NCBI GenBank assembly: GCA_965221955.1
Contig: CBDCTA010000029.1
Span: 192,001-256,000, forward strand
Direction: 5' to 3'
Length of the DNA: 64,000 nt
Source: Gammaproteobacteria bacterium
GTDB lineage: Bacteria; Pseudomonadota; Gammaproteobacteria; UBA4575
In this document: in pieces, positions 25,497 through 29,178 of the stretch
Layout: each line of letters opens with the position of its first letter
Position numbering within the stretch: the stretch's first letter is position 1
Notes under the pieces: model-generated
Told to the model about the DNA's origin: nothing
Databases searched by the model: none
Seen by the model: the letters and a program-made list of their open reading frames with translations, nothing else
Position numbers and translations under genes: made by a program

Positions 25497-26141
25497 CTAG
25501 AGACCTTGCATAAGCACAGGTAAATTTCTTGCTTGGCCAATCATCAGTTCTAAAGATCTTGGGTCGGGCACTTCTTTTACACGTTTTTGTTCATCATTGG
25601 AACTCAATAAATTATTATATAGAGTGTTTGTGTCTTGTTGACCTAAGTCTTGTACAGAATCAATACCTGCATATACCATTAATTCAGCAAACTGACCTTC
25701 AATTCCACTGACTCGCATCAAGTCACACATACTTGCCCATTTGCTCACTACGAAGTCTTCGATGCCAATGTGGTTGGCAACCTCTATACGGCCATCCATT
25801 TGACAACACTTCTGCAATAGTTGTTGGGTCGTGGCAATGCCTTTATCACGAAGCTTGTTACCGTAACTTTTTCCTATACCTTCTACTTCTTCTATTTCAT
25901 AGCTAGTCTGTTCAGCTTTAGAAATCAATCCTGCTGCGGTGCCCGCGGCGATAGGCTTGTTTACTTCAGCAAGCTTTGTGGAATATTCCTGATCTTGTTC
26001 ATCTAATTTCTTTTTCCAGCTTGCATCGAGATCATCAAGTTTTGTGCAGCATGAACTTTTTGCTAGCCACCATCCGAAAACCGCACCTAGCAAAGCTGCA
26101 AGTAATAAACATAGCCACATTTGTTGAATTAAATAGCTCAT
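25497..26141 (-). CDS. Membrane-anchored DUF4332-like (HhH) protein
   Basis: N-terminal TM; IEEVEGIG, DLMRVSGI..QFAELM..AGIDSV. Confidence 0.8.
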   Translation of the reverse strand: MSYLIQQMWLCLLLAALLGAVFGWWLAKSSCCTKLDDLDASWKKKLDEQDQEYSTKLAEVNKPIAAGTAAGLISKAEQTSYEIEEVEGIGKSYGNKLRDKGIATTQQLLQKCCQMDGRIEVANHIGIEDFVVSKWASMCDLMRVSGIEGQFAELMVYAGIDSVQDLGQQDTNTLYNNLLSSNDEQKRVKEVPDPRSLELMIGQARNLPVLMQGL

Positions 26142-26143
26142 TG

Positions 26144-26896
26144 TTAAAGCCCCTCTACATTAAATTCTATTCTTCTGTTTTTTGCTTTACCTGCATCGGT
26201 TTCATTATCCGCTATTGGCTTGGTTTCACCGTAACCTATAGCAGATAAGCGACTTGCTTCAACGCCGTTGTTGATCAAATGGTCCATTACGGCAGTAGCA
26301 CGTGCTTGACTTAATAGTAAGTTGTAGTCATCGTCGCCGCTAGCATCGGTATGCCCTCTAATCTCAATTTTTGCTTCAGAGCACTGATTGGCAATATCGG
26401 TTAAATCGTTTAATAAAGCATGACTTGACGGGTCAATATCAGCACTATTCGTTGCAAAATTAATTTTATTTAGATTTAGTAAAACATCAAAGTCTTGCTG
26501 ACAAGTATATTCAGGGAGAGGCTCTAGCTTAGGTTTTAGAATTTCTGCGTCTATTTCTTTTTTTGCAGTATCTGTATCAGAGACAGGTTCTAATTCTGTA
26601 ACAGGTTCTTCTATAGAGGCGATAGTAAGTTGATTGTCTACCGTGTGAACACCGTATACTTGTTTGGCGTGTTGTTCTGCCTTTTGTTTGATTTTATCGC
26701 TTGCGACTTCACCCGTGAGGACGATATCACGACCATCCGTTACGATGTCTATATCATCTATGCCTAGTTCAGCAAGGGATGCATGAAGGCGGGTATCGAT
26801 GTCAATTTGAATAATAGTGCTGCGCTCATAGATGCAAAAATAGCCAAGGATAGCGAGCAATAATAAACCTAGTAATACAATCAAGGCTTTATTCAT
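26144..26896 (-). CDS. BON + OmpA C-terminal domain protein
   Basis: GRDIVLTG...GVHTVDNQL (BON); GHTD...N..LS.ARA, GYGE..P, NRRIEF. Confidence 0.9.
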   Translation of the reverse strand: MNKALIVLLGLLLLAILGYFCIYERSTIIQIDIDTRLHASLAELGIDDIDIVTDGRDIVLTGEVASDKIKQKAEQHAKQVYGVHTVDNQLTIASIEEPVTELEPVSDTDTAKKEIDAEILKPKLEPLPEYTCQQDFDVLLNLNKINFATNSADIDPSSHALLNDLTDIANQCSEAKIEIRGHTDASGDDDYNLLLSQARATAVMDHLINNGVEASRLSAIGYGETKPIADNETDAGKAKNRRIEFNVEGL

Positions 26897-27002
26897 TAGA
26901 ACTCTCCATCACGTTATTTTTAGTCTTGTTTTGTAATGAAACACTGCTGAGGAATGCTAAAAAACTGGTATGTTTCGAAAAACTAAATCCAGGCTAACGC
27001 AT

Positions 27003-27269
27003 TCATAATTTGTTTGCAATCATAAAATATTGCTTAAGCTTAGAGGAAGTATTTGAGCAAAATTGTAAATGCACATGAGAACCTTCTCCAAAGCATACTG
27101 TTGCAAATATGTTTTGGGGAAGCCACTCTTTTTTCATTTTTACTTTTTCTAAACGCCGTTTAGATTTATTACTTTTACGATGTATACCACCTTTGCGGAG
27201 TAAAGGATGATTGTGTAAAAGATTTCTTTGCCGAGTCAATTTAGTCGGAAACTTGATTTTATTCGACAT
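27003..27269 (-). CDS. Small highly basic protein, candidate alternative ribosome-rescue factor
   Basis: GGAG SD before the ATG at 27269; RNLLHNHPLLRKGGIHRKSNKSKRRLEKVKMKKEW; internal hairpin at 27083-27122. Confidence 0.6.
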   Translation of the reverse strand: MSNKIKFPTKLTRQRNLLHNHPLLRKGGIHRKSNKSKRRLEKVKMKKEWLPQNIFATVCFGEGSHVHLQFCSNTSSKLKQYFMIANKL

Positions 27270-27329
27270 TATATTCTCCATAATTAGATTAATATTCCAT
27301 AAAGGAAGTACTGAGTTATCAATACTCCC

Positions 27330-27560
27330 TTATGCCGCTTCTTTCACGAGTGTTCCATCATGAATTGCTTGTTGAATGTGCTTCATGAAATACAGTGAAT
27401 TTTTCTCTGCAAATAACACCTCATCCTGCATTGTATTAACAGGTACTGGAAAGCTATATAACTTTTCACTGTATGGCACGGACACAGCGTAGTACGCAAT
27501 ACCTTTTCGGTAGCGTAAAAATTTTGCCTTACTGTTTAGTAATTTGTTTTGAATATTCAT
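27330..27560 (-). CDS. Small hypothetical protein (paralog of 27582-27797)
   Basis: F..YRKG..YY...FPVP...LFAE..LYFMKHI; ends -EAA; AGGTGG SD. Confidence 0.75.
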   Translation of the reverse strand: MNIQNKLLNSKAKFLRYRKGIAYYAVSVPYSEKLYSFPVPVNTMQDEVLFAEKNSLYFMKHIQQAIHDGTLVKEAA

Positions 27561-27581
27561 ATTCCACCTATGTAAAAAAGC

Positions 27582-27797
27582 TTACGCAGCTTTGGCTTTA
27601 TCCAATTTTTCTACATGCGCTTTGATGTAAGGGTAAAAACGATTCACACGATCTTCATTTAAGAAAACCGACTGACCTGAGCCTTTAATTGGCACAGGAA
27701 ACTTAAAACCACTTTCAGTGCGGTACCATAATTTCCCTGATAGGAAAAACATGAAGCGTACATTTTCATTATCTTGCAGAATTTGTTCTAGATTCAT
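27582..27797 (-). CDS. Small hypothetical protein
   Basis: VRF.FF.SG.LWYRTESGFKFPVPI...VFLNED...F..YI; ends -KAA; GGAGG SD. Confidence 0.78.
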   Translation of the reverse strand: MNLEQILQDNENVRFMFFLSGKLWYRTESGFKFPVPIKGSGQSVFLNEDRVNRFYPYIKAHVEKLDKAKAA

Positions 27798-27920
27798 TAC
27801 ATGCCTCCTAAGTTAAGTACGTTAATAAAATCCTCTAGTTGGATTATCAATATTGATTTCTAGGTCATTATTGATATTCATAGCCCACATAAATGGGCAA
27901 TAAATTCATGATGGGTCAAT

Positions 27921-28000
27921 AAAAAACCCCGGTGCTCACGCTGCCGGGGTTTTTAATGTTTCCGGAAGGTAAGCTGCACCTTCCGATTAATTTGGAAGGT
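27921..28000 (-). promoter_or_regulatory. Attenuator: alternative hairpins plus intrinsic terminator
   Basis: On the mRNA: ACCTTCC / CGGAAGGT / ACCTTCCG, then AAAAACCCCGG...CCGGGGTTTTTT. Confidence 0.75.
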
Positions 28001-28002
28001 TG

Positions 28003-28149
28003 CTATGCCATGAAAATCTTTTGCATTTTCACTGCTTCAATGCCTATTTCTGCACGATGCAGTGCACAGTGTGTATTTGTAAACGACATAGTCGTGCACC
28101 ATGTATACATGTCGGTATTTAGGGCAAGTTGTTGCATAAAATTTTTCAT
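28003..28149 (-). CDS. Putative 48-aa leader peptide (not in the ORF track)
   Basis: MKNFMQQLALNTDMYTWCTTMSFTNTHCALHRAEIGIEAVKMQKIFMA*; sits between promoter and attenuator. Confidence 0.6.
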   Translation of the reverse strand: MKNFMQQLALNTDMYTWCTTMSFTNTHCALHRAEIGIEAVKMQKIFMA

Positions 28150-28186
28150 CGGCGGCGAACTATACTCTTTTAAACTCGTATTGCAA
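28150..28186 (-). promoter_or_regulatory. Sigma70-like promoter with GC-rich discriminator
   Basis: TTGCAA-16 nt-TATAGT-TCGCCGCCG-ATG. Confidence 0.6.
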
Positions 28187-28243
28187 TATTAAGGTTTAAA
28201 ATTTTAGGTTCAAAAATATACCGTTCATCTGTTAAGTTACAAT

Positions 28244-28561
28244 TTAGCGATACTTTTTCTCACAAGCTCTACGAATGCGGATCACTGCATCCACACTTTC
28301 TACGCCCACCATGTGATCTAACAAACATTCATTATACCTACGTTCATCACTCATAATGGTGGTGGAAGGGCCTCTGCCATAGTTTTCCTCGCATGCTTCA
28401 GCAATGAATCGACTGGCGACATCCAGCTTGGCATGGTCCAGGTGTTCCAAAATGCAATCTTCATACTCATAACGATTTTTAGAAGCTGCAGAGGTCACAT
28501 TCAGACTGAAAGCAGTTATAAGTACTATGGTTAATAACTCATGCTTGGGCGGTCTCATCAA
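28244..28561 (-). CDS. Small secreted four-cysteine protein with internal duplication (VF_A0006-like)
   Basis: Signal peptide; YEDCILEHL...ACEENY and YNECLLDHM...ACEKKY. Confidence 0.75.
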   Translation of the reverse strand: MMRPPKHELLTIVLITAFSLNVTSAASKNRYEYEDCILEHLDHAKLDVASRFIAEACEENYGRGPSTTIMSDERRYNECLLDHMVGVESVDAVIRIRRACEKKYR

Positions 28562-28623
28562 TATTTGAGTACCAGATAATCACTTAGTTCCTTCGTCAGG
28601 GTGAGAATTTTAGAAAATATGAG

Positions 28624-29178
28624 TTATAAATCGCGAATTTTCAGGCGAATGTATTCCTGCAAAATATGATAACTATCACGTGCTTCATCAGCAGTGATGT
28701 GATTAGCAACAAGCGTCCAAGAAACACTCTCTGCGTCAGGTAGATTTTTATTCAGTGAGGCTAGAATACTTTTACTGCTATCAATGCGTATGGCATCACG
28801 GTGTAAATCGTTTTGATAACGGTGTTTGACGATGCTTTTAGGAAAACGGCTTTCGCTAATATAAAAAATCAATGCATAAGCATTAGCATCAGTACTATTA
28901 AACTCAAATTCATAAGTTTTATGATATGGAGTTCGGCTCGTGTACTGTTTTACTTTATCAAGTTTAGATTTTGAAATTTTATTTTCTATTTGTGTAAAAG
29001 CAGCTTGTTGCTGGTAATGAGCCCAATAACTGCAATTTGTGCATATCAACGAGATAAGTATTAGGAAAAAGTATTTTTGAAATAACGTATTCGTCATATC
29101 ATCAATGCCTAAATGAGAGAGGAGATTGCTAGATGATAAAACCTTCCTGGTTAAGGTTAAAATAGCCTCTACACTCAA
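28624..29178 (-). CDS. Hypothetical exported protein or lipoprotein
   Basis: Hydrophobic segment ending ICTNC; start probably at MTNTLF. Confidence 0.55.
   Translation of the reverse strand: MSVEAILTLTRKVLSSSNLLSHLGIDDMTNTLFQKYFFLILISLICTNCSYWAHYQQQAAFTQIENKISKSKLDKVKQYTSRTPYHKTYEFEFNSTDANAYALIFYISESRFPKSIVKHRYQNDLHRDAIRIDSSKSILASLNKNLPDAESVSWTLVANHITADEARDSYHILQEYIRLKIRDL

Follow-up and report, generated by a model that had tools for sequence, protein, structure and literature searches.

When trans-translation fails, Proteobacteria cannot do without back-up ribosome rescue, for which ArfA, ArfB, ArfT, and BrfA are to our knowledge the only known factors. One of these, BrfA, is made from non-stop mRNA. 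Here we analyze a stretch of DNA of 64,000 nucleotides (nt), hereafter the window, from a Gammaproteobacteria bacterium (UBA4575; assembly GCA_965221955.1, contig CBDCTA010000029.1, positions 192,001-256,000). Its minus strand carries the gene of an 88-amino acid (aa) basic protein, C88, preceded by a short leader open reading frame (ORF) and by two small proteins, A71 and B76, that both end in -AA. Comparison of C88 with its relatives points to an unnamed family whose genes are laid out like arfA and whose product is a candidate ribosome rescue factor.

All Proteobacteria studied are reported to require trans-translation or an Arf (PMC11633108), and ArfA is described as limited to a subset of beta- and gammaproteobacteria (PMC8012679, PMC11633108). 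A stem-loop in arfA is reported to bring about premature termination or RNase III cleavage and so a non-stop arfA mRNA, which is the source of most of the ArfA made; trans-translation then removes this product (PMC8012679). Residues 15-31 of ArfA are given as the part that binds release factor 2 (RF2), with F25 in a hydrophobic pocket (bioRxiv 10.1101/465609). The same preprint describes ArfT of Francisella as a 40-aa protein with the sequence KKGGSTNKK near its C-terminus, not controlled via transcription termination or RNase III in the way that ArfA is (bioRxiv 10.1101/465609). Burroughs and Aravind assign ArfT to a broad family of repeat proteins and also discuss the pairing of PrfH with RtcB (PMC6514570). 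BrfA of Bacillus subtilis is reported as a release factor (RF)-dependent rescue factor (PMC6881298).

Results

C88 belongs to a family of basic peptides encoded ahead of an RNA hairpin

Positions are based on a minus-strand reading of 26700-28500 together with a listing of ORFs. The features that carry the argument are the following.

27003-27269, minus strand: C88, 88 aa, basic; residues 1-49 conserved, tail not conserved; candidate ArfA-like rescue factor
27077-27128, minus strand: RNA hairpin of 19 pairs within codons 48-65 of C88, 5′ arm starting at the Glu-Trp codons; from folding and covariation

The initial annotation of this DNA had described C88 as a Lys/Arg-rich protein with a long hairpin inside its 3′ coding region. 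Both parts of that description extend to the family, which has an architecture of the arfA/brfA type with covariation in the hairpin. Residues 1-49 of C88 are 35% Lys/Arg and follow the pattern RNxLHxHPLLxKGGxHxKSxK...KKEW. A word-indexed search returned 45 relatives of 51-94 aa, conserved over approximately the first 55 residues and divergent beyond, with the consensus RNLLHDHPLLxKGGxHRKSNKSKRRxxKVKMKKEW; with distant members included, the wider family consensus becomes RNPVARSPLLRKGG.

A scan of contigs with the C88 family gave 39 loci, from uncultured Thiotrichales, other gammaproteobacterial metagenome-assembled genomes, Candidatus Thiodiazotropha, Sedimenticolaceae, Chromatiales, and Competibacteraceae. 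In most of them a GGAG-type Shine-Dalgarno sequence precedes the C88 start, and 17 related loci of one lineage also carry A71. To place the family more widely we used a class sample of 201 gammaproteobacterial genomes, one per family. The C88 profile matched 22 of these at E ≤ 0.001 (two of the matches being weak or broken), independently of the leader and the -AA proteins, and the PF03889 model of ArfA matched 2 of the same 201. Two unpublished genomes (G039 and G141) are part of this sample; both were counted as ArfB holders, and ArfA, the C88 family, and A71 were found in neither.

No Pfam or NCBIfam model was found for the family in scans of the window protein, 29 members (Pfam), and 10 distant members. 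Pfam, NCBIfam, and PADLOC scans assigned no family to A71, B76, C88, or the leader peptide, and a PHROGs scan assigned none to C88 or the leader peptide. The family profile had no match among PDB sequences at E ≤ 10, and a search of the ESM Atlas with a homologue from the C88 search (P0054) returned top scores of 0.76 and 0.75, below the level of a lead. The few source names attached to C88 relatives read ‘hypothetical protein’. Looking up clusters for 10 distant members gave two named ‘hypothetical protein’ and seven without a name, and one sequence was not in the collection. Our literature searches turned up no account of the family or of any small basic gene that follows rtcB; one could be present in the supplementary neighbourhood lists of PMC6514570.

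The hairpin starts at the point where conservation of the protein ends. We anchored 37 family genes on the conserved Trp codon, folded 96 nt of each, and derived z scores from mononucleotide shuffles. In 34 of the 37 we found a hairpin of 19-31 pairs (z between -2.2 and -9.2) whose 5′ arm begins at the (K/R)(K/E)xW codons. The arm sequences differ widely between subgroups and the pairing is maintained. In the subgroup linked to rtcB (11 sequences, RNAalifold), 10 of 21 pairs show changes in both partners; pairing extends to 93.9% of cells, as compared to 85.4% in shuffles and 41-59% with a slid partner. The close subgroup, to which the window belongs, behaves similarly (15 sequences; changes in both partners of 7 of 20 pairs; 95.3% of cells paired). 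In each subgroup 0 of 500 shuffles reached the observed value, a count that is not a probability in alignments of related sequences such as these, and the slid controls, which keep the relatedness, agree. A covariance model of the close group (R1) recovered that group and L017, L020, and L022 only, plus antisense matches; its alignment (A6) does not enter the counts above.

As read from the folds, the C88 stop codon of 22 members lies past the hairpin and that of 12 falls within its loop or one of its arms, and this variable position suggests that the sequence beyond the 5′ arm is not kept as protein. Among 16 distant members from the class sample, approximately 10 form a stable hairpin that precedes or spans the stop, and in five (L059, L061, L064, L068, and L070) an intrinsic terminator, with its U-run before the stop, lies within the ORF. 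The conserved unit is a basic peptide of ~50 residues followed by an RNA structure; the longer protein is not conserved.

Several full-length C88 homologues (L019, L021, L028, L034, L036, L039, and L057) end in -AAA, -LAA, or -SAAA, at or inside the hairpin. These ends are like that of the tmRNA tag, and could be a degron on the product of read-through or a by-product of a GC-rich loop.

C88 resembles ArfA in gene architecture

For comparison, arfA of E. coli K-12 (yhdL; PF03889) was taken as a control from its annotated record (L051). The E. coli hairpin likewise begins at the gene’s own Trp codon (NWE), and the ArfA gene of genome G111 has a terminator inside its ORF. In both families a conserved basic product of 50-55 residues ends where a long hairpin begins at a Trp codon, and the ORF runs on into a non-conserved, partly hydrophobic tail, with an in-ORF terminator in some members. 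An LLHDxPLx(R) segment near residue 20 and a host with tmRNA, RNase III, and RF2 are also shared. In the same E. coli record, the 3′ end of arfA is overlapped by yrdG, which is given as an ‘arfA-derived small regulatory RNA’ (L051:5432-5485).

The genome that holds the window is 96.6% complete and encodes tmRNA (tag ANDDNYALAA), RNase III, RF1, and RF2; our RF2 alignment (A8) excludes the RF2 of the unpublished genome G039 (L092). We did not find ArfB or PrfH at this completeness, there being no third gene with an RF-1 domain and no match to the ArfB model NF006718. A search of the genome with PF03889 gave nothing above the cut-off of 25.5 bits; a 16.4-bit match elsewhere has stops inside. Given the need of Proteobacteria for an Arf when trans-translation is not available, a genome with tmRNA and without a known back-up is a natural place for an unrecognised one.

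On the strength of these comparisons we propose C88 as a candidate member of an unnamed family of ArfA-like rescue factors, produced from non-stop mRNA, controlled by tmRNA, and dependent on a release factor, a proposal to which we give an even chance. The C88 message would be cut, or in some relatives terminated, at the conserved hairpin that starts at the Trp-49 codon. Ribosomes would then reach the end of a message without a stop codon and yield a peptide of ~50-55 residues. With active tmRNA, this peptide would be tagged (ANDDNYALAA) and degraded; upon failure of trans-translation, the untagged peptide would accumulate.

A number of observations weigh against this proposal. Three members (L018, L032, and L040) are without a convincing hairpin. 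That of the window ranks with the weakest (-17.5 kcal/mol, z -2.2 to -3.0) and lacks a U-run; truncation there would thus rely on a putative RNase cut. Alignment of C88 with ArfA by hhalign gave E values of 0.45 for the single sequence and 0.27 and 0.13 for profiles, with a probability <1%, and no PDB sequence was matched. The KGKGS motif, invariant in ArfA alignments, is absent from the C88 family, which has KGGxHxKS instead, and in many distant members the Trp is followed by an acidic tail, a feature not found in ArfA. The C88 family further differs from ArfA in that some members are linked to rtcB, which could indicate a role in RNA repair instead, and in the -AAA or -LAA ends of some full-length forms. 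Lastly, ArfB is present in 8 of the 22 C88 holders and in 84 of the 179 other genomes, and the two are not complementary. E. coli carries both ArfA and ArfB, and for this reason the lack of complementarity neither helps nor refutes the proposal.

Part of this evidence also bears on a possible, if somewhat doubtful, alternative, that C88 is a true and very divergent homologue of ArfA whose linker is shortened and whose KGKGS is replaced by KGG. The LLH(D/N)HPLL(R/K) segment resembles LLHDPLFR of ArfA, the distance from Pro to Trp is 27 versus 29 residues, both hairpins open with the Trp codon, and both families are gammaproteobacterial (PMC11633108 for ArfA). The hhalign alignment, not itself significant, sets LLHNHPLLR on LLHD-PLFR and Trp on Trp; in it, L24 of C88, invariant in the family alignment (A3), is aligned to F25 in the RF2-binding segment of ArfA (E 0.27-0.45), a resemblance in position that also counts for the rescue-factor proposal. 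Homology is disfavoured by the hhalign probability and by PF03889, which at E ≤ 1 matches neither the window protein nor any of 29 members and 10 distant members; the wider consensus is also less ArfA-like than that of the closer relatives. The ArfA profile used is shallow, with 11-12 mostly enterobacterial sequences, and the orders of G061 and G111 held 1 and 6 genomes, respectively. We provisionally file C88 as a protein that would work like ArfA and stands outside the ArfA family.

Some C88 homologues directly follow rtcB

The initial annotation had stated that similar small genes occur near rtcB in other proteobacteria, and for C88 this holds. In 10 of the 39 loci (L021, L023-L027, L029, L031, L035, and L038), ORF clustering places a C88 homologue directly downstream of rtcB. 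These loci come from Thiodiazotropha, Sedimenticolaceae, and Chromatiales and share one order on one strand: a Band-7 protein, a 315-aa protein, an RtcB of 399-401 aa, and the C88 homologue. The 401-aa protein of L021 is RtcB (PF01139, E 2.4e-130), and the other nine fall into the same BLAST cluster. In the window’s own genome, at 96.6% completeness, rtcB was not found, as the initial annotation had said of the window. The 315-aa protein between the Band-7/SPFH gene and rtcB (L021:776-1723 and its cluster in L023-L038) has no Pfam, PHROG, or PADLOC match and may be a partner of RtcB.

This arrangement is reminiscent of the PrfH-RtcB2 repair pair (PMC9223846, PMC6514570), in that the C88 homologue adjoins an RtcB ligase at the position of a rescue or release gene. 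PrfH, in contrast, is homologous to RFs and has a catalytic domain; the C88 peptide, of ~50 residues, has no RF domain, and neither rtcB nor prfH was found in the window’s genome. The linkage would also fit a role as a basic RNA- or ribosome-binding protein, for example as an accessory to RtcB repair or in ribosome silencing, with the hairpin serving as an element of mRNA stability, processing, or termination. Hairpins at the 3′ ends of genes are common, and the distribution of the family shows no anticorrelation with ArfB. We consider such a role unlikely, as the hairpin begins at one and the same codon even in highly divergent sequences, the window’s genome has no detected rtcB, and a plain 3′ stabiliser would follow the stop codon, whereas this hairpin lies inside the ORF with a variable stop or a terminator before the stop.

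Under the rescue-factor proposal, the other points of comparison are ArfT and BrfA. C88 shares with ArfT and KGG-type proteins a short basic chain, a K-K-G-G motif, and a gammaproteobacterial host (relatives of the window are labelled Thiotrichales), with ArfT compared here by the motif given in the preprint alone. It differs in that C88 members have no Pfam match at E ≤ 1, the KGG repeat included. BrfA belongs to a different phylum, and our library scans gave no sequence similarity to it.

A leader ORF, a terminator, and two -AA proteins precede C88 in one lineage

Upstream of C88 lie the following features.

28159-28186, minus strand: promoter-like sequence TTGCAA-16-TATAGT (-35 box at 28186-28181, -10 box at 28164-28159); from the scan and conservation
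28003-28149, minus strand: leader ORF of 48 codons; ATG 9 nt past the -10 box, TAG 3 nt before segment A
27962-28000, minus strand: segments A (ACCUUCC, 27994-28000), B (GGAAGGU, 27978-27984), and C (ACCUUCCGG, 27962-27970)
27921-27954, minus strand: intrinsic terminator with a GC-rich stem, GUGA tetraloop, and 6 U; -18.8 kcal/mol
27833-27842, minus strand: 10-nt motif CCAACTAGAG, 35 nt before the A71 start
27582-27797, minus strand: A71, 71 aa, ending KAKAA; member of PHROG 20427
27330-27560, minus strand: B76, 76 aa, ending KEAA; paralogue of A71

The initial annotation had read the promoter, the 48-codon ORF 9 nt past the -10 box, the alternative hairpins with a strong terminator at the leader stop, the paralogous -AA proteins, and C88 as one operon under leader-peptide attenuation, induced when termination, recycling, or rescue is impaired, with every layer sensing the status of the ribosome. 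Its individual features are all present on the minus strand where it had placed them and are conserved in the 17 related loci, which maintain the order leader, A71, (B76), C88. This constancy fits a single operon. The 17 loci come, however, from a single lineage in which the entire neighbourhood is syntenic, and the conserved order is for this reason weak evidence of function.

The promoter scan listed 8 promoter-like sites where 8.4 are expected by chance. The match alone means little, and the case for a promoter rests on conservation: the -35 and -10 hexamers, the 9-nt gap, and the ATG show little or no variation among 15 aligned loci, and the spacing between promoter and ATG is identical in 16 loci. 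An A/T-rich stretch lies upstream, and the 9-nt gap between the -10 box and the ATG is the GC-rich sequence TCGCCGCCG. The leader ORF has no Shine-Dalgarno sequence. Given this and the short distance of its ATG from the -10 box (9 nt), we expect a leaderless or almost leaderless transcript.

The leader ORF is open in 17/17 loci at 36-56 codons despite many indels in its middle. Its stop (TAG in 15 loci, TAA in 1, TGA in 1) always falls 1-5 nt before segment A, as would suit an attenuator. Differences by codon position are nearly even (2296/2241/2728), which suggests weak selection on the sequence of the peptide; it seems that the act of translation has been kept, and not the peptide sequence. 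The peptide is rich in Met (10.9% of residues); Ile, Thr, and Lys make up 9.6%, 9.1%, and 9.0%, respectively. These residues are not clustered in runs, and nothing in the composition relates to the genes downstream. Folding of the 246-nt leader gave a z of -4.3 with 0 of 200 shuffles as good. A stem that closes the 5′ end of the leader ORF on its 3′ end appeared in the window’s fold and was rejected, not being kept in other loci.

Segment B can pair with A (-9.9 kcal/mol) or with C (-13.4 kcal/mol), and the minimum-energy fold contains one or the other depending on the locus. The sequence of the three segments is almost invariant, so that covariation cannot be tested there. The terminator segments and U-run are likewise nearly invariant in 15 aligned loci; alignment and folds show the closing pair C:G replaced by U:A in L012 and L014. 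No antiterminator that shares a strand with the terminator was supported, as A:B and B:C both leave the terminator stem free. The sole candidate, segment C paired with the terminator loop (6+4 bp), is not kept in L007, L012, and L014. Since the alternative hairpins do not overlap the terminator, a classical attenuator is not demonstrated: of the proposed leader attenuation, the open ORF stood and the antiterminator did not. The leader does share with the attenuators of trp, his, and thr a short ORF with its stop beside the first segment, mutually exclusive hairpins, and a terminator before the genes. It differs from them in being leaderless, in having alternative hairpins that do not compete with the terminator, in its enrichment in Met, and in preceding genes that are not biosynthetic. 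An Rfam scan of 26500-28700 at E ≤ 10 returned weak hits alone, caused by the terminator and none near its gathering score.

No sigma-70-like promoter was listed between the terminator and A71, and the downstream genes may on that account need read-through. The motif CCAACTAGAG lies in this interval. Located 30-45 nt upstream of A71, it is found unchanged in 13 of 18 loci and with a single base altered in 2 others, and is lost in three loci whose spacer has been replaced. A sigma-32 or ECF promoter at this motif was rejected on poor matches and inconsistent spacing across loci; the motif may serve as an operator, as a site of processing, or as a promoter of an unusual kind. The downstream genes may be expressed by read-through or from an unrecognised promoter at CCAACTAGAG, and regulated read-through at the leader terminator is possible.

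A71 and B76 are true paralogues, merged by jackhmmer and 26% identical in alignment, as the initial annotation had them. A71 matches PHROG 20427 along its length (E 5.7e-15, residues 5-68 against a 75-position profile) and B76 matches the same family at E 1.4e-3. A tblastn search with A71 found full-length matches of 32-40% identity in 21 jumbo-phage records (344-462 kb), among them GAP32, CBB, BF, XacN1, and RsoM2USA. In GAP32 the homologue (L104 4974-5195) lies within a cluster of phage tRNA genes, directly after tRNA-Arg; its neighbours in two other phage records viewed are hypothetical or uninformative. The GAP32 record notes a similar hypothetical protein in Acidithiobacillus ferrooxidans, which implies that the A71 family occurs in at least one further bacterial group outside the class-sample matches. 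Within that sample, the A71/B76 profile matched 2 of 201 genomes, the window’s genome and a congener, both of one family. Beyond the phages, 35 relatives of A71 were found, every one at least 74% identical. The AlphaFold2 model of A71 (mean pLDDT 71) has a helix, three strands, and a long helix, and a Foldseek search of this model against PDB and BFVD gave no match at E ≤ 0.001.

B76 is present in 10 of the 17 related A71 loci, one copy being partial and one truncated. An -AA end is found in 15 of 17 intact A71 copies, and an -EAA or -KAA end in the window’s B76 and in 5 of the 9 related-locus B76 ORFs listed. These ends match that of the genome’s tmRNA tag (...ALAA), in line with the single-operon reading. 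SsrA-like C-termini are ClpXP degrons, and by this analogy the -AA ends of A71 and B76 may act as such. Two phage homologues that were aligned are without the -AA end. We take the A71/B76 pair as an insertion ahead of C88 that is confined to one lineage and probably derives from phage.

Of the two ways to read the upstream region as a whole, we hold, tentatively, as possible that the promoter, the leaderless ORF, and the terminator form an independent small gene, for a 36-56-aa peptide or a ~230-nt RNA, and that A71 and B76 are phage-derived passengers beside a rescue-factor gene. The strong terminator with its GNRA loop and no antiterminator, the GC-rich discriminator and A/T-rich upstream region of the promoter, the jumbo-phage relatives of A71, and the presence of the leader/A71/B76/C88 unit as a single copy in the genome all favour this arrangement. 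It sits less well with the poor conservation of the leader peptide, the absence of an Rfam match, the lack of a recognisable A71 promoter downstream of the terminator, and the presence of the leader beside A71 in all loci seen. The single multi-layer operon of the initial annotation is unlikely and weakly supported because its upstream parts are confined to one lineage (2 of 201 genomes, as compared to 22 with C88), the alternative hairpins miss the terminator, the candidate antiterminator is lost in three loci, and the phage homologues of A71 offer neither an -AA end nor a functional clue. We regard the leader and A71/B76 as a lineage-specific addition before C88, with at most a putative link to it.

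Neighbouring genes

Upstream of the leader, a 105-aa protein with four Cys (28244-28561, minus strand) matches NCBIfam NF041602 (VF_A0006 family) at E 2.2e-16, below the cut-off, and is conserved in 15 related loci. Directly downstream of C88 are genes for a protein with BON and OmpA domains (26144-26896, minus strand) and a DUF4332 protein (25497-26141, minus strand). Both are syntenic in most close relatives, and conservation thus covers the neighbourhood and not the module alone. One of the syntenic loci (L003, CAXMUG010000002.1) is titled ‘uncultured Mycobacterium sp.’; its proteins are 77-89% identical to those of gammaproteobacterial loci and its bin label looks wrong. Antisense ORFs at 27932-28192 (plus strand) and opposite A71 were rejected as genes, their cross-locus BLAST clusters being explained by nucleotide conservation of the sense features.

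Discussion

The evidence for C88 lies in a short basic segment whose conservation stops at the codon where a covarying hairpin starts, in genomes that include one with tmRNA and no detected back-up. A broader picture can be drawn, one that we think improbable as a whole. C88 would represent an unrecognised family of non-stop-mRNA rescue factors, present in about a tenth of the gammaproteobacterial families sampled and thus commoner there than canonical ArfA (22 versus 2 of 201), that recognise stalled ribosomes without KGKGS and are paired with RtcB in sulfur-oxidising symbionts as a peptide counterpart of PrfH-RtcB2. The window’s lineage would have recruited two phage-derived -AA proteins and a leaderless sensor ORF, such that all three proteins accumulate only when the capacity of trans-translation or ClpXP is exhausted.

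If C88 does work as proposed, the self-limiting circuit built on a stop-less mRNA would have arisen repeatedly or outlived all sequence similarity. The linkage to rtcB would provide a testable tie between RNA repair and the recruitment of release factors. The arrangement itself, a basic N-terminus followed by a hairpin or terminator before the stop codon, offers a search signature for further rescue factors. The C88 family would then fill a gap in ribosome rescue for many uncultured marine and symbiotic Gammaproteobacteria.

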